Shown: piece after piece, positions 3,261-38,919 of the stretch
How positions within the stretch are numbered: position 1 is the stretch's first letter
Layout: each line of letters begins with the position of its first letter
Sequence record: MK903277.1
Reading direction: 5' to 3' (one strand)
DNA: 39,497 bases
From: Escherichia phage Pisces
Translations under genes and position numbers: made by a program
The notes under the pieces: generated by a model
What the model was told of the DNA's origin: nothing
Seen by the model: only the letters and a program-made list of their open reading frames with translations
Databases searched by the model: none

Positions 3261-3330
3261 TAAACTATCACTAAAGGACTCAAGGTCGAAAGACTCTAAG
3301 TCAGGACTGAAGTGAAAGACTTTAGTGATA
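3261..3330 (+). promoter_or_regulatory. Promoter-like element inside a long hairpin upstream of the RNAP gene (R1-like processing site)
   Basis: TAAACTATCACTAAAGG (3261-3277) differs from the phage promoter consensus at -2; TATCACTAAAG (3266-3276) is the exact reverse complement of CTTTAGTGATA (3319-3329). Confidence 0.4.
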
Positions 3331-3356
3331 AGACAACAGTTATAAGGACTTTAAGT

Positions 3357-6038
3357 ATGAGCGTCATCTCAATTGACAAGCACGACTTCTCTGATGTGTC
3401 GAATGCAATCGAGCCATTCAACGTACTGGCTGACCACTACGGTCAGGACCTAGCAGTAAAACAGCTTCAGCTTGAGCATGAGGCGTACACTGAAGGCGAG
3501 CGACGTTTCATCAAGAACCTTGAGCGCCAAGCTGAGCGCGGGGAGCTGGCAGACAATCAGGTCGCCAAGCCACTGATGCAAACTCTGGTCCCGACCATCG
3601 CCAAGGCTGTTCGTGAGTGGCACGAAGGCCCGGACGGTAAGTCCTCGACCTCTCGCCCAAGCGTAGCGTTTACCATGCTGAGCACTGACGAGAAGGCTGT
3701 CAAAGACCGCTCTCTGCGAATCTCTGCTGAGTCTGCTGCGGTCATCATACTGAAAGTCATCCTCAGCAAGCTGGTCAAGCCTGAGGGAATCCCGATAACG
3801 CCGATGGCCTCCGCGATTGGTCGCACACTTGAAGATGAAATCCGCTTCGGTCGCATCCGTGAGCAGGAGCAGGAGCACTTCAAGAAGACCATAGCTGAGA
3901 ACCTGAAGAAACGTGCAGGAGCAAGCTACAAGAAAGCCTACATGCAAGCGGTCGAAGCCTCCATGCTGGAGCAAGGGAAACTGGCTGACGCTTGGGGGAC
4001 TTGGAGTCCGACCGAGGCGGTACACGTAGGCATCAAGATGCTGGAGCTGGTCATCCAGTCCTCGCAACTGGTCGAACTGAAGCGCTACGGTGCAGGTAAC
4101 GCTGCGGCAGACGTCGAGATGGTCCACCTGTCAGACTTCTGGGTCAAGAAGATGTCGCAACGTGGCTTCTCACTGGCTGGCATCGCTCCGGTCTACCAAC
4201 CTTGCGTCGTTCCACCTAAGCCGTGGACCGGGGTCGTGGGTGGTGGGTACTGGGCTAAGGGCCGAAGACCTCTCCCGCTGATTCGCTTAGGGTCCAAGGC
4301 TGCGGTCCAGCGCTACGAAGACGTGTACATGCCCGAAGTCTACGAGGCAGTGAATATCATCCAGCAGACACCTTGGAAGGTGAACAAGAAGGTGCTGGAC
4401 GTGGTGAACATGGTCGAGAAGCTGAACAACACGCCTATCGCTGACATCCCTCAGATGGAACCGATGAAGCCTGAAGACTATGCAGGTGAGACCGAGGAAG
4501 AACTCAAAGCGTGGAAGAAAGCCGCTGCTGGTATCTATCGACGCGAGAAGGCCCGACAGTCCCGCCGTTTGTCCCTGAGCTTCATCGTCGGACAGGCGAA
4601 CAAGTTCTCTCAGTTCAAGGCCATCTGGTTCCCATACAACATGGACTGGCGCGGTCGAGTCTATGCGGTCCCGATGTTCAACCCTCAGGGTAACGACATG
4701 CAGAAGGGTCTGCTGACTCTGGCAGTAGGCAAGCCAATCGGTGCGGATGGCTTCAAGTGGCTGAAGGTCCACGGTGCAAACTGCGCTGGTGTCGATAAAG
4801 TCACCTTCGAGGAGCGCATCAAGTGGGTCGAAGACAACCACGACAACATCCTCGCGGCTGCTAAGAGTCCGATGGATAGCATTGACTGGTGGGGTCAGTT
4901 AGACTCTCCGTTCTGCTTCCTCGCGTTCTGCTTCGAGTATGCTGGAGTCATGCACCACGGGCTGAGCTACTCCTGCTCACTGCCTATCGCGTTCGATGGG
5001 TCCTGCTCTGGGATTCAGCACTTCAGCGCGATGCTTCGTGACCACGTTGGTGGACATGCGGTCAACCTGACGCCAAGCGGTAAGGTCCAAGACATCTACC
5101 GCATTGTGTCCGACCGGGTGGAAGAACAGCTTAAGGAGCTGCTGGTCAACGGTAGTGACAACGAAGTCAAGACCTTCGAGGACAAGAAGACGGGCGAGAT
5201 TACTGAACGTCTGGTCCTTGGAACTCGCGAGCTGGCCCGTCAGTGGCTGACCTACGGGATGTCACGCTCGGTCACTAAACGCTCGGTCATGACTCTGGCC
5301 TATGGGTCGAAGGAATACGGGTTCGCGGACCAAGTGTTTGAGGACACCGTGATGCCAGCGATTGACAGCGGCAAGGGCGCGATGTTCACGGACCCAAGCC
5401 AAGCGTCACGCTTCATGGCTAAGATGATTTGGGATGCGGTAAGCGTGACCGTAGTTGCTGCGGTAGACGCGATGAAGTGGCTGCAAGGCGCTGCTAAACT
5501 GCTGGCTGCTGAGGTCAAGGACAAGAAGACCAAAGAGGTCCTGAAGCCTTGCCTCCCGGTTCACTGGGTCACACCTGATGGCTTCCCGGTCTGGCAGGAG
5601 TACCGCAAGAAAGACACCACACGCCTGAACCTCCTATTCCTTGGGTCGTTCAACCTGCAACCGACAGTCAACAAAGGGTCGAAGAAAGAGCTGGACAAGC
5701 ACAAGCAGGAGTCCGGCATCAGTCCTAACTTCGTACACTCACAGGATGGCAGTCACCTGAGGAAGACTGTAGTCCACACCCACCGCAAGTACGGCGTGAT
5801 GTCCTTCGCAGTGATTCACGATAGCTTCGGGACCATCCCGGCTGACGCTGAGTTCCTGTTCAAAGGCGTCCGTGAGACGATGGTTGAGACCTACCGCGAC
5901 AACGATGTGCTGCAAGACTTCTACGAGCAGTTCGCGGACCAGCTTCACGAGAGCCAGCGCGATAAGTTGCCTGAGCTGCCGAAGCGCGGTAAACTGAACA
6001 TTGAAGACATTCTGTTATCTGACTTTGCATTCGCCTGA
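3357..6038 (+). CDS. Single-subunit DNA-directed RNA polymerase (T7 gene 1 homologue)
   Basis: 893 aa from ATG 3357 (the ORF track's 3312 start is probably too early); strong collinear similarity to T7 RNAP including the specificity-loop region and C-terminal FAFA. Confidence 0.95.
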   Translation: MSVISIDKHDFSDVSNAIEPFNVLADHYGQDLAVKQLQLEHEAYTEGERRFIKNLERQAERGELADNQVAKPLMQTLVPTIAKAVREWHEGPDGKSSTSRPSVAFTMLSTDEKAVKDRSLRISAESAAVIILKVILSKLVKPEGIPITPMASAIGRTLEDEIRFGRIREQEQEHFKKTIAENLKKRAGASYKKAYMQAVEASMLEQGKLADAWGTWSPTEAVHVGIKMLELVIQSSQLVELKRYGAGNAAADVEMVHLSDFWVKKMSQRGFSLAGIAPVYQPCVVPPKPWTGVVGGGYWAKGRRPLPLIRLGSKAAVQRYEDVYMPEVYEAVNIIQQTPWKVNKKVLDVVNMVEKLNNTPIADIPQMEPMKPEDYAGETEEELKAWKKAAAGIYRREKARQSRRLSLSFIVGQANKFSQFKAIWFPYNMDWRGRVYAVPMFNPQGNDMQKGLLTLAVGKPIGADGFKWLKVHGANCAGVDKVTFEERIKWVEDNHDNILAAAKSPMDSIDWWGQLDSPFCFLAFCFEYAGVMHHGLSYSCSLPIAFDGSCSGIQHFSAMLRDHVGGHAVNLTPSGKVQDIYRIVSDRVEEQLKELLVNGSDNEVKTFEDKKTGEITERLVLGTRELARQWLTYGMSRSVTKRSVMTLAYGSKEYGFADQVFEDTVMPAIDSGKGAMFTDPSQASRFMAKMIWDAVSVTVVAAVDAMKWLQGAAKLLAAEVKDKKTKEVLKPCLPVHWVTPDGFPVWQEYRKKDTTRLNLLFLGSFNLQPTVNKGSKKELDKHKQESGISPNFVHSQDGSHLRKTVVHTHRKYGVMSFAVIHDSFGTIPADAEFLFKGVRETMVETYRDNDVLQDFYEQFADQLHESQRDKLPELPKRGKLNIEDILLSDFAFA

Positions 6039-6051
6039 GGAGGCACTAACT

Positions 6052-6252
6052 ATGAAATTCGCACACAAGCAAACTGGCGTTAAAGGCGGTACTCAAATCG
6101 TGACCGTGACCGAGCATAACGGTAAGGGTCTGGTGAAGACTACGGTAATCCCAACCGAGATGTCAAAACAGCTTAATGTTCCCTTCAAATGGCTGGTGCA
6201 GCAGGTCGAACAGGCCCACGAACAGGCCCTAACCGAGGCGGCAACGAAATGA
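6052..6252 (+). CDS. Hypothetical protein (66 aa), T3 gene 1.05 position
   Basis: Strong SD GAGGAGG 8 nt upstream of ATG 6052; the ORF track's start at 6001 lies inside the RNAP gene. Confidence 0.5.
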   Translation: MKFAHKQTGVKGGTQIVTVTEHNGKGLVKTTVIPTEMSKQLNVPFKWLVQQVEQAHEQALTEAATK

Positions 6253-6330
6253 CAGACCTTAAGTGGCTGGGAGTGTGGCTCCTAGCTTTAGCAGTTTACA
6301 CTTTAATCCAACGCAGAAGAGGTTAACCAT

Positions 6331-6798
6331 ATGTTCGGTAAGTCAAAACTTAAAGCACAAATCAAAGAGTTGAGCGTGAAGGCAGCATACTTGGAGCGAG
6401 CCGTAGCGGTCCGGGACAAGGACAACGAGCGGCTGAAGGATAAACTTGCTGAGTCAGAGCGCAAGCGCCTAACGCCACCTGAGCCTGTCACTGTGAAGCG
6501 TATGGTTGGCCTGAAGTTCCGAGCGCTGTTCAATGGTCTCTACCAGCCGACTGAGTTCAAGACCGGGCCGGGACCTTGCGGTAAGACAGTGACTCACTTC
6601 ACCACGAGTCGGACCGAGCGGGAGCTGACCATCCACCAGCACCACACGGATGGCTCGCAGAAGGACTTCGAGTATCGACTGAGCGACATCGACGGTCGCA
6701 TCCAGTATGACTACGAGAACGTGAAGGTCTACGGAGAAGAGGCAGAACGTGAGCGAGCACTTCAGGCGATGGTGCGATTCCGACCTCGCGTCGCCTAA
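6331..6798 (+). CDS. Hypothetical protein with N-terminal coiled-coil (155 aa)
   Basis: SD GAAGAGG upstream; N-terminal 50 aa heptad-like and K/E/R-rich; not present at this position in T7. Confidence 0.5.
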   Translation: MFGKSKLKAQIKELSVKAAYLERAVAVRDKDNERLKDKLAESERKRLTPPEPVTVKRMVGLKFRALFNGLYQPTEFKTGPGPCGKTVTHFTTSRTERELTIHQHHTDGSQKDFEYRLSDIDGRIQYDYENVKVYGEEAERERALQAMVRFRPRVA

Positions 6799-6815
6799 AC
6801 TATCACTATAGGATT
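6796..6815 (+). promoter_or_regulatory. Phage RNAP promoter (phi1.1-like)
   Basis: TAAACTATCACTATAGGATT matches the repeated promoter consensus. Confidence 0.75.
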
Positions 6816-6862
6816 AGACTCAAGGTCATGACTCAAAGTCGTGGCCTTCATGATTAACCCTA
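6816..6862 (+). promoter_or_regulatory. Putative RNase III processing hairpin (R1.1-like)
   Basis: AGACTCAAGGTCATGAC...GTCGTGGCCTTCATGATTAA; imperfect stem with G-U wobbles; one of a four-member motif family. Confidence 0.45.
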
Positions 6863-6886
6863 ACTCATTCAATCAGGAGCTACACC

Positions 6887-7066
6887 ATGTATCAGAACAC
6901 CATTAACTTCGAGCGCATCCGTGAACGTCAGCAGACTGAAGGCTACATTCCTAAGGGCCGCAAGCTGAACAAGCCTAAACGTGGCGGTGGCGTGAAGGGT
7001 GCTTTCCGTAACGCTGAGGGCAAAGACTCTCTGGTCAACCAAGAGAAGTATTTCGTAGGAGCGTAA
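6887..7066 (+). CDS. Gene 1.1-like small basic protein (59 aa)
   Basis: Not in the ORF track (<60 aa); SD AGGAG upstream; GRKLNKPKR resembles T7 gp1.1 GRKLNKTKR. Confidence 0.55.
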   Translation: MYQNTINFERIRERQQTEGYIPKGRKLNKPKRGGGVKGAFRNAEGKDSLVNQEKYFVGA

Positions 7067-7070
7067 GACG

Positions 7071-7334
7071 ATGGGTAGACTTTACGGTGGAAACCTTAAC
7101 GCTTTCAAAGCGGCCTGTAACAGACTGTATCAGTTAGACTTCGCGGTCATAGCTGATGACTGGCGTGATGCACACCTCAGGCAGGAGTGTATGAGACTCA
7201 GGGTCGAAGACCGCGCTGGCAACATATTCGCGCTTGAGACTTTCAGTCACTACGATGAAGACGTTCTGTTCAATACCGCAACCTCATTCCTTAACGGTCT
7301 CGCTGACCAACTCGACACATGGAGCAAAGCATAA
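7071..7334 (+). CDS. Gene 1.2 homologue, inhibitor of host dGTP triphosphohydrolase
   Basis: 87 aa; MGRLYGGNLNAFKAA...DEDVLFN closely parallels T7 gp1.2 MGRLYSGNLAAFKAA...DEDVLFN. Confidence 0.85.
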   Translation: MGRLYGGNLNAFKAACNRLYQLDFAVIADDWRDAHLRQECMRLRVEDRAGNIFALETFSHYDEDVLFNTATSFLNGLADQLDTWSKA

Positions 7335-8404
7335 TGACTACTACCCTCAAGACCAACCCGCATCGCGCTGTAGATTACTCTGAGTCCGGCGTTAAGAAAG
7401 CACTGGCAGCAGCCGGGTCGCTGGAAGCCGAAGTGAAGTATGACGGTGTGCGCCTGAACCTCCCGGTCCTGCGTGAAGGTGAGACCTACTGGCTGAGCCG
7501 CGAGTCTAAGCCTCTGCCAGCCTTGGAGTGGATGAACTCTGAGTTAGGCAATGCGTGGACACAAGCTGACTGGCGCTGGTTCCTGCGTCAGGCTGGCTAC
7601 GAAGGCGTGGGCCTGATGATTGACGGCGAGGTCATGGTCAAAGGCGTGGACTTCAACACCTCCTCAGGTCTCATCCGAACGAAGTGGCTGAAGCCTAACA
7701 ACGAGGCGTTCGCTGAATGCTATCCGGGCCGTGGCAAGAAGGTCCCGTTCTGGGTCGCCCGGTCCCGACTTCAGGTTGTGGTCTACGGTGTCGTCGACAT
7801 GACGACCATAGCCGACCCGAAAGCCGAAGGTCCTATCCATAGCGTCACCCGCCTTAAGGCCGAAGCTATCGTCCCTCTCCTCCAGAAATACTTCCCGGAA
7901 ATCGACTGGGTTCTGTCTGAGTCACACACGGTCTTTGACCTTGAGTCGCTCAACTCCCTGTACGAAGAGAAGCGTCTGGAAGGACACGAGGGTCTGGTGG
8001 TCAAGGACCCGCTGGGTAACTACAAGCGTGGCAAGAAGTCAGGCATGTGGAAGATGAAGCCTGAGGACACCATCGACGGGACTGTATGTGGCCTCGTGTG
8101 GGGGACTCAGGGTAAGGCCAACGAAGGCAAGGTCATCGGCTTTGAGGTGCTGCTGGAAGATGGCATGGTGGTCAACGCCTGTGGTCTGACCGAGGAGCAG
8201 AAGGATGAGTTCACTAAGACCGTTCTGTCTGGACCGTCGGTCGGTGAGTGGGAAGAGGCGCAACGCACTGGCGAAGTACCGAACCCATACGAAGGATGGC
8301 AGGTCGAAGTCCTCTTCATGGAGCGCTTCCCGGACGGCTCCCTGCGTCACCCAAGTTTCAACCAGTGGCGTGGCACGGAAGACAATCCAACCGTTAAGAG
8401 TTAA
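7334..8404 (+). CDS. ATP-dependent DNA ligase (gene 1.3)
   Basis: Start ATG overlaps gene 1.2 stop (TAATG); KYDGVR adenylation motif; EGHEGLVVKDP, KKSGMWKMKPE and SLRHPSF blocks as in T7 ligase. Confidence 0.9.
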   Translation: MTTTLKTNPHRAVDYSESGVKKALAAAGSLEAEVKYDGVRLNLPVLREGETYWLSRESKPLPALEWMNSELGNAWTQADWRWFLRQAGYEGVGLMIDGEVMVKGVDFNTSSGLIRTKWLKPNNEAFAECYPGRGKKVPFWVARSRLQVVVYGVVDMTTIADPKAEGPIHSVTRLKAEAIVPLLQKYFPEIDWVLSESHTVFDLESLNSLYEEKRLEGHEGLVVKDPLGNYKRGKKSGMWKMKPEDTIDGTVCGLVWGTQGKANEGKVIGFEVLLEDGMVVNACGLTEEQKDEFTKTVLSGPSVGEWEEAQRTGEVPNPYEGWQVEVLFMERFPDGSLRHPSFNQWRGTEDNPTVKS

Positions 8405-8415
8405 CTGAACGTCAA

Positions 8416-8449
8416 CCCAGTGGTCTTCGCGGACTGCTGGGTTTCTTTG
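8416..8449 (+). terminator. Rho-independent terminator (T7 TE-like) after the ligase gene
   Basis: Hairpin CCCAGTGG...CTGCTGGG followed by TTTCTTT; same position as the T7 early terminator TE. Confidence 0.55.
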
Positions 8450-8470
8450 CGTCTGGGCCTCCAGCGACCC

Positions 8471-8490
8471 TAAACTATCACTGTAGGACA
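8471..8490 (+). promoter_or_regulatory. Phage RNAP promoter
   Basis: TAAACTATCACTGTAGGACA (G at -2). Confidence 0.65.
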
Positions 8491-8514
8491 ACCATCAACC
8501 TAAGGAGAAACCTT

Positions 8515-8769
8515 ATGTCTAAGAACTTAATGTTCAACCGTTTCAGCCAGACCTTCCACCTGTCACACAATCCGTTCGCTTGCATTAAGCGTAACGAGAA
8601 GGTGGGCTTCTTCGGGAAGGCCGTTAAGCTGTCACCCACAGTCTACGCTCTGATTGTTCCGAGCAAAGTAGAAGAGGCTCGCCAGAAGAAAGAGACCAGT
8701 GTACCAGTGGTCTACACCAAGTGGCCTCGCGTTCGTCTGGTGCTGGAGTTCATCAAGGAGGAGTTCTAA
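8515..8769 (+). CDS. Gene 1.6-like hypothetical protein (84 aa)
   Basis: SD AAGGAGA upstream; position after the ligase as T7 gene 1.6. Confidence 0.5.
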   Translation: MSKNLMFNRFSQTFHLSHNPFACIKRNEKVGFFGKAVKLSPTVYALIVPSKVEEARQKKETSVPVVYTKWPRVRLVLEFIKEEF

Positions 8770-9146: not shown

Positions 9147-9224
9147 CTGGTGCTTTAGACAGTGGGTCTCAACCGGGAACGTGGACTATCTGTCCATGTA
9201 CCATATGTGGAAGGAGAAAGGACT

Positions 9225-9389
9225 ATGAGCCTTGAAGAAAAGAAGTACATCGTGGAACTTGAAGGTCGCGTTCAGTCCTTTGATGTCCCGGTCTACGCTA
9301 AGTCTCTGGACGAGGCGACCCTGAAGGCTCAGGAATATGAAGATGCTGGTTTCGTGGTAGGCCGCATCCGACCTGAGCTGCACGACTAA
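9225..9389 (+). CDS. Gene 2 homologue, inhibitor of host RNA polymerase
   Basis: 54 aa from ATG 9225 (SD GGAAGGAG); [14 protein letters not shown]...[11 protein letters not shown] parallels T7 Gp2 SFEVPIYAETLDEA...AGFEVTRVRP. Confidence 0.8.
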
Positions 9390-9406
9390 ACTATCACTTT
9401 AGGAAC
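9387..9406 (+). promoter_or_regulatory. Phage RNAP promoter (phi2.5-like)
   Basis: TAAACTATCACTTTAGGAAC (T at -2). Confidence 0.6.
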
Positions 9407-9434
9407 ACCTTAACTTTAACTAGGAGATTTACCG

Positions 9435-10130: not shown

Positions 10131-10132
10131 TC

Positions 10133-11257: not shown

Positions 11258-11275
11258 TAACAAAGGAGGCATTAT

Positions 11276-11467
11276 ATGTGCAACTTGGTAGAGCTTATCC
11301 GAGTTACCATGATTCAGAACGAGGTGCGCAACTATGCGTATCTTGACTTAATGCGGATACTTCAGGTCAGCAAGCCCGTGGTTAAGAAGCTGGTATTCGC
11401 GTGGATGTATCGGGCAACCGAGGAAAGGCTTCAATCAATCTTAAGAGGAGAAGACAACAATGATTAA
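11276..11467 (+). CDS. Hypothetical protein (63 aa)
   Basis: Strong SD AAAGGAGG upstream of ATG. Confidence 0.45.
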   Translation: MCNLVELIRVTMIQNEVRNYAYLDLMRILQVSKPVVKKLVFAWMYRATEERLQSILRGEDNND

Positions 11468-11672
11468 ATTTATCGAATTTCTGGGTCGTCTGGTTGTGCG
11501 TGGCTATTCTCGTGCTGCGAGTGTGGAACGAAAAGTCGCATCTGCTGCGGCTAAAGGTGCGGAAGCGGCTGCTGCGGAAGCGGATAGTCTGCGCATCAAG
11601 TCTCTGGACGCTGGCCTCCGTGCGCGTGGTCTGGACAAGAAGGCCGAGCAACTGAAAGGCTTCTTCAGCTAA
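11460..11672 (+). CDS. Hypothetical Ala-rich basic protein (70 aa)
   Basis: Start overlaps previous ORF; immediately upstream of a promoter. Confidence 0.4.
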   Translation: MIKFIEFLGRLVVRGYSRAASVERKVASAAAKGAEAAAAEADSLRIKSLDAGLRARGLDKKAEQLKGFFS

Positions 11673-11689
11673 ACTATCACCTTAGGGAT
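11670..11689 (+). promoter_or_regulatory. Phage RNAP promoter (phi4-like)
   Basis: TAAACTATCACCTTAGGGAT (two deviations from consensus). Confidence 0.55.
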
Positions 11690-11737
11690 GAGACCATGAG
11701 TCTTGTCCCTTTGTTCGCACTATTGATTAAGGAGTGA

Positions 11738-13452: not shown

Positions 13453-13617
13453 ATGTTCAAGAAACTTAAGTCCCGATACCACACGTTCATGTACAAGTGG
13501 TGGAACGATGAGGCCAACTGTCTGTCCCGAATCCTTGGAGACCAGCGGTTTGACTCTAAGGCGTGGAAGCGAGCGAACCAGAAGTTCATGTATCACTTCC
13601 TGCGTATCGACTACTAA
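13453..13617 (+). CDS. Hypothetical small protein (54 aa)
   Basis: SD AAGGAG 4 nt upstream of ATG 13453 (the ORF track's 13423 start overlaps gene 4). Confidence 0.45.
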   Translation: MFKKLKSRYHTFMYKWWNDEANCLSRILGDQRFDSKAWKRANQKFMYHFLRIDY

Positions 13618-13635
13618 GCTATCACTGTAGGATAG
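13615..13635 (+). promoter_or_regulatory. Phage RNAP promoter (phi4.7-like)
   Basis: TAAGCTATCACTGTAGGATAG. Confidence 0.55.
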
Positions 13636-13680
13636 ACTCAAGGTCATTCACTTCGAGTGGCCTTTATGATTAGACTATAG
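13636..13680 (+). promoter_or_regulatory. Putative RNase III processing hairpin (R4.7-like)
   Basis: ACTCAAGGTCATTCACTTCGAGTGGCCTTTATGATTAGA, a member of the AGACTCAAGGTC...GGCCTT(T/C)ATGATTA family. Confidence 0.45.
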
Positions 13681-16688: not shown

Positions 16689-17547
16689 CAAGAAGATTGC
16701 TCTGGTACTGGATGGAGACTTTCTGGTCTTCTCCTCTATGGCTGCGGCTGAAGATGAGACTGACTGGGGTGACGACATCTGGACGCTAATCTGCGACCAC
16801 GAGAAGGCCAAGCGCATCCTGATGAACACTATCAGTGAAATCGTTAAGAAGCGTAAGGCTTGGAAGGACGCTAAGATTGTGATGTGCTTCACTGACGATG
16901 TGAACTGGCGAAAGTCAATCCTGCCAACCTATAAGGCCAATCGTAAGGGTTCCCGTAAGCCTGTAGGCTACAAGAAGTTTGTGGCTGACATTATGGCTGA
17001 CCCTCAGTTCAACAGCTTCCTGCGGTCCACGCTGGAGGGTGACGACTGTATGGGCATCATCGGGACACGACCTCAGATTGTAGGCTGTGACCATGCGGTG
17101 CTGGTGTCCTGCGATAAGGACTTCAAGACCATCCCGAACTGTGAGTTCTACTGGTTAACCACTGGTGAAATCCTGAGTCACACGACTGCCGAGGCAGACT
17201 ACTGGCATATGGAGCAGACAATCAAGGGTGACATGACGGATGGTTACGGCGGTATTCCGGGATATGGAGAGGACACAACCCGTGCGTTCCTTGACGACCC
17301 GTACTACTTCGTGCAGGAGACCCGCGAGCTGAAGACTGGTAAGAACAAAGGTCAGCTCAAGGTCGAGTGGAAGAAGTATCCGAAGCGTGAAGACCAAACG
17401 TTGTGGGACTGCATGGTGACTCTGGCTGCTAAAGCCGGGATGACCGAGGAGGAACTTCTGGTCCAAGCTCAGGTCGCTCGCATCTGCCGAGCCTCCGACT
17501 ACGACCCTAAGTCCAAGGAGGTCATCTTGTGGACACCTTACATCTAA
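16681..17547 (+). CDS. 5'-3' exonuclease (gene 6, FEN-like)
   Basis: 288 aa; FTDDVNWRK, YKANRK, SCDKDFKTIPNCEFYW, TIKGDMTDGY and LWDCMVTLAAKAGMTEEE match T7 gp6. Confidence 0.92.
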   Translation: MSDKKIALVLDGDFLVFSSMAAAEDETDWGDDIWTLICDHEKAKRILMNTISEIVKKRKAWKDAKIVMCFTDDVNWRKSILPTYKANRKGSRKPVGYKKFVADIMADPQFNSFLRSTLEGDDCMGIIGTRPQIVGCDHAVLVSCDKDFKTIPNCEFYWLTTGEILSHTTAEADYWHMEQTIKGDMTDGYGGIPGYGEDTTRAFLDDPYYFVQETRELKTGKNKGQLKVEWKKYPKREDQTLWDCMVTLAAKAGMTEEELLVQAQVARICRASDYDPKSKEVILWTPYI

Positions 17548-17673
17548 TCTACTGGGCCGGACTTCTGGCCCTTTACGCGATGTACGCAATCAGTGGGTCT
17601 AACCGACCGAAGCACTGAGTCTAACCGATAGTCATAACCTATCGTTCTACTGGCCATCTATAGGTGAAACACT

Positions 17674-17692
17674 AAACTATCACTATAGGGAC
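17674..17692 (+). promoter_or_regulatory. Phage RNAP promoter (phi6.5-like)
   Basis: TAAACTATCACTATAGGGA; downstream leader resembles that of the promoter at 25906. Confidence 0.8.
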
Positions 17693-17755
17693 TTTAGGAC
17701 CTAAGTTATGACTATAAGATAGACTTAAGTTAATACTTTAAGAGGAGACTTTAAG

Positions 17756-18927: not shown

Positions 18928-20496
18928 ATGGCTGAACGTCAAGGCTTCGCTGCTGAAGGAGCCAAAGCGGTTTATGACCGATTAAAGAACGGTCGCCAGC
19001 CGTATGAGACCCGTGCTCAGAACTGTGCGGCTGTCACCATCCCGTCCCTGTTCCCGAAAGAGTCAGACAACTCCTCAACCGAGTACACGACTCCGTGGCA
19101 AGCTGTGGGTGCTCGCTGTCTGAACAACCTTGCGGCTAAGCTAATGCTGGCCCTGTTCCCTCAGGCACCGTGGATGAGACTTACCGTCTCAGAGTATGAG
19201 GCCAAGACCTTGAGTCAAGACACTGAGGCTGCGGCCCGTGTTGACGAAGGACTGGCTATGGTCGAGCGTGTGCTGATGGCCTATATGGAGACCAATAGTT
19301 TCCGTGTGCCACTGTTCGAGGCCCTGAAGCAGCTTATCGTCTCAGGTAACTGTCTGCTCTACATCCCGCCTCCAGAACAGGGTCAATACAGTCCGATGCG
19401 CATGTACCGTCTGGTCTCCTATGTGGTCCAGCGCGATGCGTTCGGTAACGTGCTACAGATTGTCACCCTCGACAGGATTGCGTTTAGTGCTCTGCCGGAA
19501 GACGTTCAGTCTCAGCTCAATGCTGACGACTATGAGCCGGACACCGAGCTGGATGTCTACACGCATATCTACCGGGAAGGCGATGAGTACCTGCGTTATG
19601 AGGAAGTGGAAGGCGTAGAGGTGAACGGGACCGATGGTTCCTACCCACTGGATGCCTGTCCATATATTCCGGTGCGCATGGTCAGACTGGACGGTGAAGA
19701 CTATGGTCGTTCCTACGCTGAAGAGTATCTGGGAGACCTGAACTCTCTGGAGACCATTACCGAGGCTATCACCAAGATGGCTAAGGTCGCCGCTAAGGTG
19801 GTGGGTCTGGTTAACCCGAACGGTATCACCCAGCCTCGTCGTCTGAACAAGGCGGCTACTGGTGAGTTTGTGGCTGGACGTATTGAGGACATCAACTTCC
19901 TGCAACTGACGAAAGGTCAGGACTTCACGATTGCCAAATCGGTGGCTGACGCTATCGAGCAACGTTTAGGCTGGGCCTTCCTGCTTAACTCTGCTGTCCA
20001 GCGTAACGCTGAGCGAGTGACTGCTGAGGAGATTCGCTATGTTGCCGGGGAACTTGAAGCGACTCTAGGCGGTGTGTACTCCGTGCAGTCTCAGGAGATG
20101 CAGCTACCTCTGGTCCGTGTGTTACTGAACCAACTTCAGTCTGCTGGTATGATTCCTGACCTTCCGAAAGAAGCGGTAGAGCCTACGGTCTCCACTGGTC
20201 TGGAAGCGCTAGGCCGTGGTCAGGACTTGGAGAAGCTAACTCAGGCGGTGAACATGATGACTGGACTTCAGCCTCTGGCTCAGGACCCGGACATCAACTT
20301 GCCGACCCTTAAGCTGCGACTCCTTAACGCTCTGGGTATCGACACCGCTGGTCTGCTCCTGACGCAAGACGAGAAGCTGCAACGCATGGCTGAGCAGTCG
20401 TCTCAACAGGCAGTCGTCCAAGGTGCTGGTGCTGCTGGTGCTAACATGGGTGCTGCGGTCGGTCAGGGTGCTGGTGAGGACATGGCTCAGGCTTAA
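18928..20496 (+). CDS. Portal / head-to-tail connector protein (gene 8)
   Basis: 522 aa; extensive collinear identity to T7 gp8 (YETRAQNCA, PWQAVGAR, YRLVSYVVQRDAFGNVLQ, RMVRLDGEDYGRSY). Confidence 0.95.
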   Translation: MAERQGFAAEGAKAVYDRLKNGRQPYETRAQNCAAVTIPSLFPKESDNSSTEYTTPWQAVGARCLNNLAAKLMLALFPQAPWMRLTVSEYEAKTLSQDTEAAARVDEGLAMVERVLMAYMETNSFRVPLFEALKQLIVSGNCLLYIPPPEQGQYSPMRMYRLVSYVVQRDAFGNVLQIVTLDRIAFSALPEDVQSQLNADDYEPDTELDVYTHIYREGDEYLRYEEVEGVEVNGTDGSYPLDACPYIPVRMVRLDGEDYGRSYAEEYLGDLNSLETITEAITKMAKVAAKVVGLVNPNGITQPRRLNKAATGEFVAGRIEDINFLQLTKGQDFTIAKSVADAIEQRLGWAFLLNSAVQRNAERVTAEEIRYVAGELEATLGGVYSVQSQEMQLPLVRVLLNQLQSAGMIPDLPKEAVEPTVSTGLEALGRGQDLEKLTQAVNMMTGLQPLAQDPDINLPTLKLRLLNALGIDTAGLLLTQDEKLQRMAEQSSQQAVVQGAGAAGANMGAAVGQGAGEDMAQA

Positions 20497-20510
20497 CTAT
20501 CACTATAGGA
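20493..20510 (+). promoter_or_regulatory. Phage RNAP promoter (phi9-like)
   Basis: TTAACTATCACTATAGGA overlapping the portal stop codon. Confidence 0.7.
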
Positions 20511-20565
20511 ACAACAGGTCAGACTCTTGGCCTGTTACCTATTAACTTTAAGACAGGAGGACTTA

Positions 20566-21450: not shown

Positions 21451-21457
21451 GCTGGAC

Positions 21458-21478
21458 TAAACTATCACTATAGGGAGA
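21458..21478 (+). promoter_or_regulatory. Phage RNAP promoter (phi10-like), with 5' leader stem-loop
   Basis: TAAACTATCACTATAGGGAGA is the full consensus; transcript begins GGGAGACC...GGTTTCCC (stem-loop as in the T7 gene 10 leader). Confidence 0.85.
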
Positions 21479-22885: not shown

Positions 22886-22890
22886 TTGAA

Positions 22891-22928
22891 ACCCCTTGGG
22901 TGCCTTCGGGTGCTTGAGGGGTTTTTTC
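22891..22928 (+). terminator. T7-type late terminator (Tphi-like)
   Basis: CCCCTTGGGTGCC-TTCG-GGTGCTTGAGGGG hairpin with UUCG loop, followed by TTTTTTC; closely parallels T7 Tphi. Confidence 0.85.
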
Positions 22929-22944
22929 GTTAAGAGGAGGACTC

Positions 22945-25879: not shown

Positions 25880-25905
25880 CTTATTGATTGGCCTATAGAT
25901 TCACC

Positions 25906-25924
25906 TTAACTATCACTATAGGGA
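25906..25924 (+). promoter_or_regulatory. Phage RNAP promoter (phi13-like)
   Basis: TTAACTATCACTATAGGGA. Confidence 0.8.
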
Positions 25925-25965
25925 CTATAGGCCCTTTAAGTTATAATACTCTAAGAGGAGACTTT

Positions 25966-32200: not shown

Positions 32201-33195
32201 CGAAAGTCCTGAACGGGACGACGAACTACCTGTTAGACGCCGGACGTCAAGGCTTCTTGTCTGACATCGTGGAACATAGTCTGACTGGCAGTAAGCGTAA
32301 GTTCGATGACCGTTGGTTGAAGACTGCTGGTATCTCCGCTGACCAGTGGAAGGGCATTAAGTCCCTCATCCGTGAGTCGGTGACTCGTGGTCCAGACGGG
32401 AAGTACACCATCAAGGACAAGAAAGCGTTTAGTCAGGACCAAAGGGCTATGGACCTCTGGCGTATGGGTGACACCATCGCTGATGAGACCCTGCTCCGTC
32501 CCCACAAGCTGAGCAACATGGACGCCAAGGCTTATGGTCCGCTGGCGAAGACTGTCTTGCAGTTTAAGAACTTCGTTATCAAGTCTATCAATGGTCGAAC
32601 CATGCGTACCTTCTACAATGCCACCAAGAACAACCGAGCTATGGATGCTGCACTGTCAACGGTTATGTCTATGGGTCTGGCTGGGATGTACTACATGGCT
32701 CAGGCGCACATCAAGGCTTACGCTATGCAGGACGGTCGTGACCGTGAGTACCTGAAGCAAGCCTTGAACCCGACGATGATTGGTTATGCGGCTCTATCTC
32801 GTAGCTCCCACTTGGGTGGACCTCTTGGGGTCGCCAACATTCTGGGTGGTATCGCTGGGTATGAGGACACTAAGTTACTCCGCTCGTCTATCCTCCCGCG
32901 CTCACCTACCGAGAAGCCTGAACGTGCCATTACCTATGGTGCTGCTAAGAGTGACCCGGTGATGAATGTGGTAGGCAACTTCCTTGAGCAGGTCCCGGCT
33001 TTCGGATATGCTGCTAACGTTGGAGCTACGTCCTACAACTTGGCTGGCTACCTGAAGTCAGACACACGCGTGAACGAACGAGACTACATGACCGGGATGT
33101 ATAACACCTTCCGTGAGCTGGTCCCTAACGACCCTATCACCCAGAAGCTGCTGTTAGGCACCTTTGAGGAGCAAGGTATTCACATCAAGAACTAA
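29299..33195 (+). CDS. Internal virion protein D (gene 16), ejection protein
   Basis: 1298 aa; from about residue 200 onward collinear with T7 gp16 (RLEARETARN, VRSPTGMQSGASGK, KGTYVPHVY, YNRRVNGDIAIMAGTGKTTKE, ILTGRARR); N-terminal ~170 aa differ from the T7 transglycosylase domain as I recall it. Confidence 0.9.
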   Translation: MATRGIRNNNIGNIRVSKDQWEGATGDDGSFVTFDTPDSGVRALAKNLMSYGRQGYDSIEKIITRWAPPSENDTQSYINSVVAATGIPATQSIDLSNPDVLASLSEAIGYHETGSRYDPEVYKTGVSRALSGAGGITPKTPPVSANVFDALTEGLKSKPKVALGENLPGVTGMNIEGQAPEAPNESFGEMFYKSTGETLDQRADRSTWFGIGGAAEAEVKNSMVGVAIRAGQTEDSLDVIGDVFNPTRWNNHKWSREELDQIRNAGVLPQYYGVITGGSPQNLTELINLALENQKLDAEKAKAGTGAQLAAGVIGAGVDPLTYVPIAGQVGKGGKLVNKMFTVASQSGALAGASELARTSVAGGDAHVAEAIMGGALFGGGMTAIGDAIGKALGKSTNEFAGPATRLEARETARNVDGQDLSRLPIREGEETFSHQGVKFADVPNEPGSVRLEDGSILIGENPLNPKTRQVFDEVIEPERAAAGVNLGGLTEIGLKLLRSENPEIRGLAADLVRSPTGMQSGASGKIGTTASDVFERLRAVDHRFYNDIDDAVTQALKDPYFQTNFNRDTGAFRQDIYQRVALAIEDGSGNLKAELTPGELKVYDLLKNQFDAKREMMENPAMFGRVDAQSIFPGSRFKGTYVPHVYSNQMKQLFINELGSPEALQEAIKKSWLTSYASRPEVKARVDEALLEANPNLKPEELAAAVDKYANDKAYGISHTDLFERSSVMEENINGLVGLENNNFLEARNLFDSDMSIILPNGQPFNVNSLREWDMDKIVPAYNRRVNGDIAIMAGTGKTTKEMKDTVETMMNRAGDDGKLKGEVATLRDTLKILTGRARRDGADDAAFSTVMRTMTDLSFFAKNAYMGVQNLTEIGGMLARGNVRAMLHGIPMFRDLAFRNKKMGASEIKDLHNVVFGKELDDSIRPSKQDVIDRLRAYSDLSKPVATALGSAKYYTGELAVRSPFTKVLNGTTNYLLDAGRQGFLSDIVEHSLTGSKRKFDDRWLKTAGISADQWKGIKSLIRESVTRGPDGKYTIKDKKAFSQDQRAMDLWRMGDTIADETLLRPHKLSNMDAKAYGPLAKTVLQFKNFVIKSINGRTMRTFYNATKNNRAMDAALSTVMSMGLAGMYYMAQAHIKAYAMQDGRDREYLKQALNPTMIGYAALSRSSHLGGPLGVANILGGIAGYEDTKLLRSSILPRSPTEKPERAITYGAAKSDPVMNVVGNFLEQVPAFGYAANVGATSYNLAGYLKSDTRVNERDYMTGMYNTFRELVPNDPITQKLLLGTFEEQGIHIKN

Positions 33196-33211
33196 ACTAT
33201 CACTATAGGAA
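33194..33211 (+). promoter_or_regulatory. Phage RNAP promoter (phi17-like) with 5' UUCG hairpin
   Basis: TAAACTATCACTATAGGA; transcript 5' end folds GGAGGC-UUCG-GUCUCC (33212-33227). Confidence 0.8.
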
Positions 33212-33254
33212 CGGAGGCTTCGGTCTCCACCTATTTTGAATAACAGGAGGTATA

Positions 33255-35996
33255 ATGGCTAAAACAACTATCACTCAGTTCCCTGCTGGTCAATCGCAGT
33301 ATCGAATTGAGTTCGACTATCTGGCCCGACCTTTCGTCGTCGTAACGTTGGTGAATAGCTCCAACCAGACGCAGAATAAGGTCCTCGTCGTAGGTCGTGA
33401 CTATCGGTTCCTGAGCGCAACGGTCATTGAGATTCTGATTGCTCAGACCGGATTCGACACCCTGCGCATCCACCGTCAGACTGGCACCGACTTGGTGGTA
33501 GACTTCCGTGACGGTTCGGTCCTGACTGCAAACGACCTGACCAACGCTGAACTTCAGGCCATTCATATCGCTGAAGAAGGTCGTGACCAAACGGTTGACC
33601 TTGCGAAGGAGTATGCGGACTCAGCCTTGACGTCAGCAACCAATGCGAAGAACTCTGAGAACGAGGCTCGACGTATCGCTGAAAGTATCAAGACTGCTGG
33701 TCTGATGGGATACATCACCCGCCGCTCGTTTGAATCTGGTATCACAATCCGTGAGTGGAACGAAGCTCTGCTCTGGGAAGCTGACGGTAACTACTATCGT
33801 TGGGATGGTACGCTACCTAAAGTCGTTCCTGCTGGTTCAACTCCAGATTCTGCTGGTGGTGTTGGCAAAGGTAAGTGGCTCTCCGTTGGTGACGCAACGC
33901 TACGCACTGAGATGCTTCGTGGTCGCTTCAAGTTCGAGGGCGCTGAGTCTGTATACTATGTCCCGAACATCAACTTCAACACTTCGGTCGATAACCGCGC
34001 TGCTGCCTATGCGTTTGCCAATAAGATTTATATCCCTCGTGATGTGACCATCCGTGTGAACCTGCTTCCTGATGATGATGTCCGTAAGTTCGTTGGTGAG
34101 GGCAAGCTGATTGTCAAGAACCAGTTCTACGGCGGTGACATGCTGTTTGACGTAGAGAAGGCGACCAATGGTAACAAGCGCTCGGTCAAGTCCGTACTTC
34201 TTGAAGCTGTGCGCTCTCAGTCCTACGCTGACGGTACAATAGGGATTGTGGGTGACTCCATCACAGACGGTGCTTGGGGTAAACAGAACTGGAGTTCCCC
34301 ACCGTTGGATTCTAACCGCAACTTAGCTGCTCCTGTGGACTATAACCACGGGTTAGCTGGAGGCTCCCACTCATGGTGTGCGCATTGGCAGTGGCTAATG
34401 AACATGGTTCAGTCTCGCTGGACTCGTGAGCCTATCTTCCAAGTCTACAATGCGTCCCTCTCTGGGGCCAAGCTGTCAGACGGATGGGGCTACCGTAACT
34501 TTGACCGTGGGTTCTTCGGGAACGTTCGGTATGGCGCTAAGGCCCCTCGTGTCTGTATTCTGGCTATGGGTTGGAATGACTCCAGTCAAGACATGGCGAC
34601 CTACCGCGACCAGATTGATATGTTCGTCCGTAAGGCGTGGGGTTATGGTTGCACCGTTGGTATCGTGACCGTGAACGACAACGACTGGTCCCGCATTGGG
34701 TTCGAGGGTGCGACCAAGCGTCAGATGTGTGAGACCTTGGGTATCGACTACTTCAACTTAGGGCCAGAACTGACAACGATGTCCAACATCAACATGCAGG
34801 GCATGGACTATTACTACGTGAAGAAAGAACCTCAGTACGACACCACACACCCTCAGGAGCTGGGACAGAAGGTAATGGGTGGCTCAATGTTCATGCAGAC
34901 CCTCGGTGAGAAGTACGTTCGCCGTGTGCGTCCGGGTGACATGATTAACACCTCCGTGGTCGAGAACTTCTGGGATGCAGTAACGTACCCTTCGCAGAAT
35001 CACCTCCGTCCTCAGTACGGTAAAGCTGGTGGTACTCCTAAGCTGAACACCCTCGGTTATCTGCCTATGGCTCAGACCGCCGGAGAGAACGTAACGTTCA
35101 ATACCTTCGTGTGGTGCGAAGAAGAGGATATGTCACTGACGGTGATGGAGCCGTGGACTGGTGCTGGTAAAGTGGGAGACAACAACCATCTCCGAGTCTG
35201 GGCACCCGCTGGTCTGGTTCTGGATGAAACCGATGCGAACTACGGTACGCGCAACAAGAAGATTAACGACTACTGTCAATACAACGTTGGCAAACTGGCG
35301 TCAAACTATCTTGGTGGTTCCCGCACACTTACCACGTATGCCGGGCGTCTGCGCAAAGGTCTCAACCAGATTGCAATCGTGAACGGGGGCGCTCTGCCTA
35401 CCTGCTGGTATCCAGCCCTGAAGTTCGGACACATCACGACCGATGGTATCACCATCCCGCTGACCCGTCTGTCCATCTCCCAGTCCTCAGCTCCAGTCCC
35501 GTTCATTGCGGACGGCTACCAGTTTGATGACTACGTGCTGTCTAATGCGTTCTCTGGACGCGCTGGCGCAATGACGACTGATGGTTATATCCGTCAGGGT
35601 ACGGTTGTAGGCCGAGTGTACGTCAAATCTGGCTTTGGCCTGAACACCTATCTGGCACTGAACCTCGACTCCCTGTCTGGTAATGCAATCCTCATCGGGG
35701 TGGCATCCAACGGTCAGATTGCCTGTGGGTCATGGCTGGGCAAGGAGCCGACTGACTGGACTCTTCTGGGAGACATCACGACCAAGGACTTCACGAACGT
35801 GCCGTTCACGGTGTGGGTCTACACCAACGCTAGTGGTCAATACACTTTCTCTATCATCACTGATGATGGACGAGTTGTAGCGAACCCGATTGCCACGACT
35901 GTAGTGACCTCCGGTCGCATCGGTGTATTCAAGCGGACCACTGGTTCCTTCATGGCTCAGATTGAGGCTAACTGGGGCTTCACCAACGTAGGGTAA
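33255..35996 (+). CDS. Tail fibre / tailspike protein (gene 17) with C-terminal SGNH/GDSL-hydrolase-like domain
   Basis: 913 aa; N-terminal ~150 aa match the T7 gp17 particle-binding domain ([39 protein letters not shown]); distal part contains GDSITDG (about 34252), GWNDS (about 34570) and DTTHP (about 34840). Confidence 0.85.
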
Positions 35997-36038
35997 CAAC
36001 TTTGGGTCAAGGACGACCCGTTTAACAATGGAGGTATT

Positions 36039-36233
36039 ATGATTGAGTTCGACTTCAAGAATGAGGTCCTCAAAGCCTCGCCTATCGTCGGGACCGCTGC
36101 GGCTGATGGTGCCAGTCGGTTCTTCTTTGGGTTAACACTCAACGAATGGTTCTACGTCGCTGCTATCGCGTACACCGTGGTGCAGATTGGCGTCCTAATT
36201 TACAAGACGATTAAGAGCGGAGGTAAGACATGA
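36039..36233 (+). CDS. Holin (gene 17.5)
   Basis: 64 aa; PIVGT..AD...R.FFGL.LNEWFYVAAIAYTVVQIG nearly identical to T7 gp17.5. Confidence 0.9.
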   Translation: MIEFDFKNEVLKASPIVGTAAADGASRFFFGLTLNEWFYVAAIAYTVVQIGVLIYKTIKSGGKT

Positions 36234-36493
36234 CGCAGATGGACTTAGAGAAGTTCCTGTTAATGCTGGACACTGAACGTGCGCGACTCATGCTGCAAGA
36301 CCTGCGGGATGACTCTAAGCGTTCGCCCCAGCTCTACAACGCCATCGAGAAGCTGCTGGCCCGTCACAACTTTGTGTTAAGCAAGGTGTCGGTGGACGAG
36401 AAGCAGTTGGCAGACATGGAGGCGCTGAACAGAGAGTACGACAAGGTGCTCTCAGCGACCGAGGATAATGACACTGGGTATGGTGTCCAATAA
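36230..36493 (+). CDS. Terminase small subunit (gene 18)
   Basis: 87 aa; LDTERA..ML.DL.D..RSPQLYNAIEKLLARHNF parallels T7 gp18. Confidence 0.85.
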   Translation: MTQMDLEKFLLMLDTERARLMLQDLRDDSKRSPQLYNAIEKLLARHNFVLSKVSVDEKQLADMEALNREYDKVLSATEDNDTGYGVQ

Positions 36494-36496
36494 GTG

Positions 36497-36545
36497 TTAG
36501 ACTCAAGGTCATTACTATATGTAGTGGCCTTTATGATTAACACAC
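36497..36545 (+). promoter_or_regulatory. Putative RNase III processing hairpin (R18.5-like)
   Basis: TTAGACTCAAGGTCATTACTATATGTAGTGGCCTTTATGATTAA; same motif family as 6816, 13636 and 3278. Confidence 0.5.
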
Positions 36546-36594
36546 ACTACGAGCGGCGACGCTACGTGGATTCTGAGAAATGAGGAGGGCAACT

Positions 36595-37044
36595 ATGCTC
36601 GAACTTTTACGTAGATGCGCCCCTTGGCTGGTGGCAGGACTCATGTTCTGCTCAGGTTACTGGGTGGCAGACAATAAGTGGGAGGCGAAAGTAAGCAATG
36701 AGTACATCACGAAACTTGAGGCACGAGAGAATCAACGGGCTGCTGTCCAAGGTGAAATCGACAAAGTGTCAGCCGAGTGGCAAGACAAGATGTCCGCGCT
36801 GGAAGGCTCTACTGATAGGATTATTGCTGACCTTAACCGCGATAACAAGCGGCTGCGCATCCGTGTCAAACCCACCAGTGGAACAGTCCAGACTGACGGT
36901 CGATGCGTCATTGATGGTTACGCCGAACTTGACGAACGAGATGCTAAGCGTCTTATCGCCATCGGACTGAAAGGTGACGAATGGATTAAGGCCCTCCAGA
37001 AGACCGTGAGAGCCATGCAGCAAGAGAAGGAGGTGAAACCTTGA
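36595..37044 (+). CDS. Rz-like i-spanin (gene 18.5)
   Basis: Start ATG 36595 with SD GAGGAGGG; N-terminal TM helix [13 protein letters not shown]; [26 protein letters not shown] parallels T7 gp18.5. Confidence 0.85.
36698..36970 (+). CDS. Rz1-like o-spanin lipoprotein (gene 18.7), embedded in a different frame within the i-spanin gene
   Basis: MSTSR...[23 protein letters not shown] has a lipobox; C-terminal [15 protein letters not shown] matches T7 gp18.7 SLMVEPNLTTEMLNV. Confidence 0.85.
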   Translation: MSTSRNLRHERINGLLSKVKSTKCQPSGKTRCPRWKALLIGLLLTLTAITSGCASVSNPPVEQSRLTVDASLMVTPNLTNEMLSVLSPSD

Positions 37045-38804
37045 GTCAAGACTTAGCGGCGCGTCAGGCGCTTATGACTGCCCGTATGAAGGCAGACTTC
37101 GTGTTCTTCCTGTTCGTCCTGTGGAAAGCTCTGTCCCTCCCGGTCCCGACTCGCTGTCAGATTGACATGGCGAAGAAACTATCGGCTGGGGACAACAGGC
37201 GTTTCATCTTACAGGCGTTCCGTGGTATCGGGAAGTCATTCATTACGTGTGCCTTCGTGGTCTGGAAGCTGTGGAACAACCCGGACTTGAAGTTCATGAT
37301 TGTGTCGGCCTCAAAGGAACGAGCTGACGCGAACTCCATCTTCATCAAGCGTATCATCGACCTGATGCCTCAGCTCCAAGAGTTGAAGCCTAAGCAGGGG
37401 CAGCGAGACGCAGTAATCAGCTTCGACGTAGGGCCAGCCAAGCCTGACCACTCACCTTCGGTTAAGTCCGTTGGTATCACTGGTCAGTTAACTGGTAGCC
37501 GTGCGGACATCCTGATTGCCGATGACGTAGAGGTCCCCGGTAACTCAGCGACTCAAGCTGCAAGGGACCGACTGTCTGAGCTGGTGAAAGAGTTTGACGC
37601 AATCCTGAAGCCGGGTGGTACGGTTATCTATCTGGGTACTCCTCAGACCGAGATGACCCTATATCGTCAGCTTGAGGGCCGTGGCTACTCGACTACAATC
37701 TGGCCAGCTCGTTACCCGCGTGATGAGAAGGACTGGAAGTCTTACGGCGACCGTCTGGCCCCGATGCTTCAGGCAGAGCTGGAGTCGGACCCTGAGGGCT
37801 ACTACTGGCTCCCAACGGATGAGGTCCGCTTCGACGATGAGGACTTGAAGGAACGTGAGCTGTCCTATGGCAAGGCTGGCTTCGCTCTCCAATTCATGCT
37901 TAACCCGAACCTTGGCGATGCCGAGAAGTACCCGCTGAAGCTGCGTGACCTTATCGTAGCGGACTTGGACCCTGAGTCTAGCCCTATGGTCTACCAGTGG
38001 CTCCCGAACCTCCAGAACAAGCGTGATGACGTTCCTAACGTGGGACTCATGGGCGACAGCTATCACACGTATCAGACTGTAGGTTCTGCGTTCAGTTCGT
38101 ACACCCAGAAGATTCTGGTCATTGACCCTAGTGGTCGTGGTAAGGATGAGACGGGCTATGCGGTCCTGTATCAGCTCAACGGCTACATCTTCGTGATGGA
38201 AGCTGGTGGTATGCGTGGTGGCTATGAGGACTCAACGCTGGAGGCTCTGGCGAAGATTGGTCGCAAGTGGAAGGTGAACGAGTACGTCATTGAGGGTAAC
38301 TTCGGTGATGGTATGTACCTCGAACTCTTCAAGCCTGTAGCGGCCCGTATTCACCCGGCAGCAGTGACTGAGGTCAAGAGCAAGGGCCAGAAGGAACTCC
38401 GCATCTGCGACGTTCTGGAGCCTATCATGGGGTCTCACCGACTCATCGTGAACTCCTCGACCATTGTGTCTGACTACCAGACTGCTGCTGACAAGGATGG
38501 CGTCCGTAACCCTATCTACTCTCTGTTCTACCAGATGACCCGTATCAGCCGTGAACGTGGAGCCTTGGCACACGATGACCGACTGGATGCTCTGGCTATC
38601 GGTGTACAGTTCTTCGTAGAGTCTATGGCTAAGGATGCCGTGAAGGGCCAGCGTGAAGTTACCGAGGAGTGGCTGGAGGAACAGATGGAAGACCCGAAGA
38701 AGGGCTTTAAGTCCATCGAGACGGACTACTGGGCCAATGGGGTACGGGTACAGTTCAATACAGATGATGACTTGGGCTTAGGGTCCTACGTTCAGTTCCA
38801 CTGA
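37041..38804 (+). CDS. Terminase large subunit (gene 19)
   Basis: 587 aa; apparent TTG start with SD AGGAGGTGA; extensive identity to T7 gp19 ([79 protein letters not shown]). Confidence 0.95.
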
Positions 38805-38900
38805 CCTAATGAATAACTATGGGTGAATACTGCATGAATAAGCGGTTAGTAACCCATAGTTACTAGTGGTCTAACTCTATGATTCTAAAGGCTTTTGGAC

Positions 38901-38919
38901 TTAACTATCACTATAGGGA
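38901..38919 (+). promoter_or_regulatory. Phage RNAP promoter near the right end (phiOR-like)
   Basis: TTAACTATCACTATAGGGA. Confidence 0.8.

Follow-up and report, generated by a model that had tools for sequence, protein, structure and literature searches.

Escherichia phage Pisces carries a K1F-type promoter family together with a matching T7-like RNA polymerase

A described promoter-polymerase pair in the Pisces genome

The systems closest to the one described here, a family of twelve phage promoters and the gene 1 RNA polymerase (RNAP) encoded with them in 39,497 nucleotides of Escherichia phage Pisces DNA (record MK903277.1; this whole stretch is hereafter called the window), are those of phage K1F and its relatives. 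Temme (2012) grouped phage RNAPs into subfamilies by their beta-hairpin, with a single binding-block consensus per subfamily; a T7 RNAP into which the K1F hairpin had been swapped, T7(K1F), gave a 17-fold induction on its own promoter and was orthogonal to T7, T3 and N4-type promoters (PMC3458549). The T7(K1F) variant is defined by 754S, 756N and 761V, with ACTAT as its cognate block (PMC11880802, Table 2), and a network of residue-base specificities based on positions 748, 756 and 758 has K1F among its nine clusters (PMC11880802). The K1F loop was also used by Segall-Shapiro (2014) as an orthogonal 'sigma fragment' after M750R had been added, a change selected to raise the activity of this loop in a split T7 polymerase (PMC4299498). 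More recently, the RNAP of phage Ro45lw was purified, its minimal promoter was found to be ACTTAACTATCACTATAGGGA, and its +1 on that sequence was mapped in vitro by deep sequencing to G (Takatsuki, 2025, JBC; PMC12272871). A Kayfunavirus genome paper from 2026 gives the same consensus as that of the window, CTWAACTATCACTATAGG, for putative promoters (PMC13298934).

Comparison of polymerase and promoters with deposited sequences identified the window pair as a K1F-type promoter/polymerase pair, already described, biochemically tested and used in synthetic biology. This settles a question that the preliminary description of the sequence had left to a database search. Indeed, ACTTAACTATCACTATAGGGA is the same 21-mer as the window site at 38899-38919. 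Since a logo, in vitro transcription, a loop swap and a database search, the checks proposed in that description, have been carried out on the same or near-identical molecules, they have in substance been done.

When the whole window was searched with CTAAACTATCACTATAGG, allowing up to three mismatches, 12 matches were found, all on the + strand and with at most two mismatches; four are exact copies and the remaining sites carry one or two mismatches. The chance expectation set against these 12 matches was 0.01 from shuffles, and none of 100 shuffles reached 12. The matches start at 3260, 6795, 8470, 9386, 11669, 13614, 17672, 20492, 21457, 25905, 33192 and 38900. The twelve sites first listed are therefore real, although their coordinates had been given one too high (two too high at 17672 and 33192). 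Taking the first G of GG as +1, and giving promoter spans from -17 to +6 (23 bp), the predicted +1 G lies at 3276, 6811, 8486, 9402, 11685, 13630, 17688, 20508, 21473, 25921, 33208 and 38916, respectively.

The logo built from these sites is invariant at -16, -15, -13, -11 to -5, -1, +1 and +2. The binding block at -12 to -8 reads ACTAT in 11 sites and GCTAT in one, in agreement with the ACTAT block, distinct from those of T7 and T3, that had been noticed at the outset. CAC at -7 to -5, A at -1 and GG at +1/+2 are constant in all 12 sites, which share a T7-family core ending in CACTATAGG. Variation was seen at -17, at -14 (A in nine sites, T in three), at -12 (one G), at -4 (one C), at -3 (A in eight, G in two, T in two), at -2 (one A, with T in the other 11) and from +3 onward. 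The main variable position is thus -3; the variation previously placed at -2 and -1 had been misnumbered, as -1 is an invariant A and -4 and -2 vary only once each. In a position weight matrix (PWM) derived from the 12 sites, these scored 29.9-37.5 bits, and a scan of both strands of the window returned no further site above 15 bits and none on the - strand. Promoter sequences of the T7 and T3 types were also searched for in the window, and none was found.

Gene 1 (3357-6038, + strand) encodes a T7-family single-subunit RNAP of 893 amino acids; its ATG at 3357 is preceded by AAGGA and lies within a mechanically called open reading frame (ORF) of 3312-6038 that starts at GTG 3312. The product aligns end to end with T7 RNAP (1270 bits), matches PF00940 (RNA_pol, 355 bits) and PF14700 (RPOL_N, 54 bits), both over cut-off, and keeps the catalytic motifs AFDGSCSG, TKRSVMTLAYGS and IHDSFGT (T7 D537, K631, Y639 and D812). 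Its specificity loop, RLNLLFLGSFNLQPTV (5622-5669, + strand), aligns with T7 R746-LNLMFLGQFRLQPT-I761; the stretch RLNLLFLGSFNLQPT lies exactly at 5622-5666, and the residue aligned with T7 R756 is Asn, both as originally reported. According to the alignment, the loop differs from that of T7 by M750L, Q754S, R756N and I761V, whereas R746, N748 and Q758 are retained, so that among the four base-contacting loop residues 756 alone differs.

The co-occurrence of sites and loop extends across the genus, and neither the sites nor their placement is random. The same promoter 18-mer occurs 11 times in K1F, 12 times in IMM-002, 12 times in Ro45lw and 11 times in YZ1, together with this type of loop, as the proposed pairing of promoter family and loop predicts; searched for in T7 and T3, the 18-mer was not found. 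The window, IMM-002 and Ro45lw share one and the same specificity loop, from which those of K1F and YZ1 differ only in having Met at 750. At this residue (window 5634-5636), Leu is therefore shared by the window, IMM-002 and Ro45lw, and Met by K1F and YZ1.

Compared system by system, the window resembles K1F in its 18-mer consensus, in 11 corresponding positions that include the site upstream of gene 1, and in an RNAP 94% identical, with S754, N756 and V761 common to both loops. K1F differs in retaining M750 (Leu in the window), in having no site before gene 5 and in the G at -3 of its phi2.5 site (T in the window). Ro45lw is closer still, with an RNAP 98% identical, an identical loop and 12 sites in corresponding positions; the two enzymes are separated by 19 amino-acid differences, all outside the loop, and the genomes are about 87% identical over their aligned parts. 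The engineered T7(K1F)/PK1F pair shares 754S, 756N, 761V and ACTAT at -12 to -8 with the window, but it is a chimera in a T7 scaffold that keeps the T7 TAATA at -17 to -13 and the T7 N-terminal domain, where the window has NCTWA in its promoters and a different AT-rich-loop region in its polymerase. T7 itself shares the 23-bp promoter architecture, the CACTATAGG core, the +1 G, the single-strand orientation and the location of promoters before the same gene blocks; it differs in having CGAC at -12 to -9 where the window has ACTA, AA at -16/-15 where the window has an invariant CT, and R756, Q754 and I761 in a loop segment about 74% identical to that of the window. T3 has A at -12 and C at -11 like the window, but combines ACCCT with D748 and R756, whereas the window combines ACTAT with N748 and N756.

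Taken together, the twelve sites are almost certainly class II/III-type promoters of a K1F-like T7-family genome, read by its own gene 1 RNAP.

Determinants of specificity and alternative readings

By analogy with T7, the polymerase would bind duplex DNA at -17 to -5, its specificity-loop beta-hairpin occupying the major groove from -12 to -7 and a loop of its N-terminal part covering -17 to -13, then melt the TATA segment and start at the G of GG. A K1F-type loop (N748, S754, N756, Q758 and V761) would read ACTAT(C) in place of the CGACT(C) of T7 and the ACCCT(C) of T3, and N756 would contact the A:T pair at -9. If the sites are recognised solely by the phage's own gene 1 RNAP, transcription in Pisces should be orthogonal to that of T7 and T3.

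A second part of the enzyme may take part in this recognition. The segment aligned with the AT-rich recognition loop of T7 (T7 89-102), HEGPDGKSSTSRPSVA, lies at 3621-3716 on the + strand (RNAP residues 89-120) and is followed, in the alignment with T7 RNAP, by an 11-residue insertion, TDEKAVKDRSL. Within it, T7 K93, R96 and K98 are replaced by D, S and S, which removes three of five basic residues present in the T7 loop, and two one-residue insertions are present. Judging from sequence, this remodelled region probably reads the altered block at -17 to -13 (NCTWA instead of the T7 TAATA), and together with CT at -16/-15 it may represent a second co-varying contact, one that the engineered T7(K1F) does not reproduce.

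A narrower account would ascribe the altered specificity to R756N alone, reading the -9 base pair. T7 R756 contacts the -9 base pair (PMC5937735, PMC8874028), as the preliminary description stated, and the T7 base contacted there is G; moreover, 756 is the sole residue to differ among the four that contact bases. Across many T7-like RNAPs, the covarying determinants are dominated by 748, 756 and 758, and when changes in T7 RNAP were restricted to these three positions, seven of nine clusters gave one active pair or more, the exceptions being K1E and SP6 (PMC11880802). Nevertheless, four bases of the binding block, -12 to -9 (CGAC to ACTA), differ from T7, not one, so that -9 cannot be singled out as the differing position, as was done at first. 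The native promoters differ at -16/-15 (AA to CT) as well, and the AT-rich-loop region is remodelled. The validated graft altered 754, 756 and 761 together, and the K1F loop needed M750R for good activity in the split polymerase, at a position where the window has M750L. A single-residue explanation consequently seems unlikely to us, although it is the alternative that fares best.

Some points weigh against the reading of the twelve sites as promoters of the phage's own polymerase, or against its details. Promoter activity, the +1 position and specificity transferred with the loop were shown by others on near-identical proteins, and the transcript mapping and biochemistry, which come from those proteins and not from this exact phage, would apply to Pisces by analogy, as would the use of the sites in vivo. 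The relative strengths of the promoters are likewise something we infer by comparison with T7. A search of the PDB for a K1F-type RNAP-promoter structure returned matches to T7 and mitochondrial RNAPs only. Finally, since N748 is unchanged although -11/-10 differ (GA to CT), an account that assigns one residue to one base is incomplete.

That the pair constitutes a new specificity class, apart from every described T7-like pair, is highly improbable. It is true that -12 to -8 and residue 756 differ from both T7 and T3, and that the phage collection holds no record identical to the window, the best being Escherichia phage IMM-002 at about 94-95% identity. However, the promoter consensus and the loop type are shared with K1F, IMM-002, Ro45lw and YZ1, the K1F pair has been published and engineered, and the 98%-identical Ro45lw enzyme has been characterised. 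Furthermore, a tblastn search with the 61-residue loop segment retrieved about 204 deposited phage records with at least 95% identity and just 15 between 80% and 95%, with T7-type loops near 74%; because of this gap, the K1F-type loop can be regarded as a discrete and common class. The RefSeq product name of the gene 1 polymerase in K1F, IMM-002 and Ro45lw is 'N4-like RNA polymerase', which is misleading, as these enzymes align with T7 RNAP over their whole length.

The window aligns collinearly with the genomes of Kayfunavirus, and its nucleotide similarity places it in this genus (Autographiviridae, Studiervirinae), in which K1F (the type member), Ro45lw and YZ1 are all classified. IMM-002, its best deposited relative, is about 94% identical at the nucleotide level (93.6% for the 91% of the first 25 kb that aligns, 95.0% for the 81% that aligns in the remainder), and Pisces is probably a separate species-level lineage related to it. 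The tail-fibre region contributes to the part of the window that IMM-002 does not cover.

The remaining alternative, that the repeats are other dispersed elements such as RNase III sites, host sigma-70 promoters or recombination/packaging signals, has next to no chance of being right, for although hairpins like the RNase III sites of T7 and T3 follow several of the sites and six sites overlap upstream stop codons, the repeat has no hairpin symmetry and carries the T7-family initiation core, a 98%-identical polymerase initiates in vitro from the same sequence, sigma-70-like matches are no commoner than in shuffles, and the hairpins lie downstream of +1, separate from the repeat.

Promoter positions, probable graded strength and the site upstream of gene 1

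Every promoter lies 29-260 nt upstream of the next T7-syntenic gene, in an intergenic or gene-end location. A positional counterpart in T7 or T3 exists for 11 of the 12 sites, the exception being the one upstream of gene 1; the T7-like placement ahead of gene blocks noted early on accordingly holds for all sites but this. In half of the promoters (6/12), the TAA at about -15 to -13 doubles as the stop codon of the gene before it (6796-6798, 9387-9389, 11670-11672, 13615-13617, 20494-20496 and 33193-33195), an overlap equally compact in T7 and T3, for example at gene 8 and phi9.

The promoters of the left half, all on the + strand like the others, begin with ACTAAACTATCACTAAAGGACTC upstream of gene 1 (3259-3281), which has its +1 G at 3276, at a distance of 81 nt from the ATG, an A at -2 and a PWM score of 32.3 bits. 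The promoter before the gene 1.1/1.2/ligase block (6794-6816) occupies the position of phi1.1 of T7 and of T3, and its TAA is the stop codon that ends ORF 6331-6798 upstream. The next, before gene 1.6 (8469-8491), corresponds in position to T7 phi1.5/1.6, has G at -3 and directly follows a TE-like terminator. Those before gene 2.5, for the single-stranded DNA-binding protein (9385-9407), gene 4, for the primase/helicase (11668-11690), and gene 5, for the DNA polymerase (13613-13635), have T at -3, C at -4 with T at -3, and G at -12 with G at -3, respectively. The gene 4 promoter has the lowest PWM score, 29.9 bits, and its variant, CACCTTAGG, is conserved in K1F, IMM-002 and YZ1.

Further to the right, the phi6.5 equivalent (17671-17693) has a consensus core and a GGGACT start. 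The phi9 equivalent of the scaffold gene (20491-20513) overlaps the gene 8 stop codon, and the phi10 equivalent of the major capsid gene (21456-21478) is the sole site with a full T7 class III-like GGGAGA initiation region. They are followed by the phi13 equivalent of the internal virion protein genes (25904-25926), the phi17 equivalent of the tail fibre gene (33191-33213), which overlaps the gene 16 stop codon, and the phiOR equivalent (38899-38921), near the right genome end and after gene 19. A degenerate promoter-like direct copy, CCTAAGTTATGACTATAAGAT, which scores 14.6 bits, is present at 17700-17720, 29 nt downstream of the phi6.5 promoter; it is conserved in K1F (17206-17226), and no significant RNA structure was found in its region. 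RNase III-type hairpins around the phi6.5 and phi13 promoters, of the kind annotated in T3, were considered and rejected, as the downstream RNA folded no better than shuffles.

Of the six sites as far as gene 5, five depart from consensus at -4 to -2, as against none of the six later ones (Fisher p=0.0076), and several of these departures are conserved between genomes. Because of these conserved departures, the early and DNA-metabolism sites are probably weaker. The idea of graded strengths put forward in the preliminary description is therefore reasonable, even though the positions on which it was based had been misnumbered. By analogy, an early-weak/late-strong pattern would reasonably parallel the weaker class II and stronger class III promoters of T7, and weaker sites for early and DNA-metabolism genes combined with consensus sites for structural genes would set up a programme like that of T7 in both timing and amount.

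The gene 1 promoter and its flanks are conserved in five Kayfunavirus genomes, namely the window, K1F (2474-2496), IMM-002 (3399-3421), Ro45lw (2400-2422) and YZ1 (2086-2108), and in the deposited records inspected no annotation of this promoter was found. The A at -2 (TAAAGG), which gives the window site a T3-like CACTAAAGG core, is common to the clade of the window, IMM-002 and Ro45lw, whereas K1F and YZ1 have the consensus (TATAGG in K1F). Immediately before gene 1, T7 and T3 lack a phage promoter; what they have instead is phiOL near the left end, which is missing from this genus and, in T7, is one of 17 promoters. As no PWM match was found near the left end of the window, there is no phiOL equivalent in it. 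In the T7 paradigm, gene 1 is an early gene transcribed by the host. Were the promoter at this site functional, gene 1 would be a natural 'autogene' under tuned positive feedback, a suggestion that we consider speculative and, on balance, doubtful; if true, it would be a difference in wiring from the T7 paradigm.

Neighbouring signals and value for the genus

Two terminators complete the likeness to T7, which has a TE terminator after the ligase gene and Tphi after gene 10. The TE-like terminator of the window (8414-8450), a GC-rich hairpin of 13 bp with TTCTTTG behind it, stands directly after the DNA ligase gene, where T7 and T3 have TE, their early terminator for host polymerase, and the phage promoter at 8470 adjoins it downstream. 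The Tphi-type terminator (22888-22931), located before gene 11, consists of a strong 17-bp hairpin and a T-run (AAACCCCTTGGGTGCCTTCGGGTGCTTGAGGGGTTTTTT); it follows an 83-residue ORF downstream of the capsid gene and would serve as the terminator for the phage polymerase.

A 52-nt element at 6814-6865, directly downstream of the 6795 promoter, recurs with 83% identity at 36497-36548, between genes 18 and 18.5. Each copy folds as a long, interrupted hairpin (z -3.4 and -3.1), and the two sit at the positions of the RNase III sites R1.1 and R18.5 of T7 and T3. The motif GACTCAAGGTC is also found after the promoters of genes 1 (3279-3290) and 5 (13635-13665). Scans of the window for sigma-70 and terminator consensus sequences gave no more matches than shuffles, yielding only one plausible early host promoter (677-706) and part of the Tphi stem.

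A direct terminal repeat between the ends of the window was looked for and none was found, so that either the terminal redundancy is present in a single copy or the window has been trimmed. Near the left end, a tandem pair of 31-nt repeats, 84% identical (232-294), resembles the short repeat arrays found beside the terminal repeats of T7-like genomes.

As a discovery the pair carries little weight, the window adding one more natural genome with a K1F-type pair. Its value lies rather in annotation: twelve placed promoters, two terminators and RNase III-like sites are now available for this genome, in a genus whose deposited records under-annotate K1F-type promoters, notably the one before gene 1. 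The pair is a textbook case of promoter-polymerase co-variation in T7-like phages, and one that already serves as an orthogonal expression tool.

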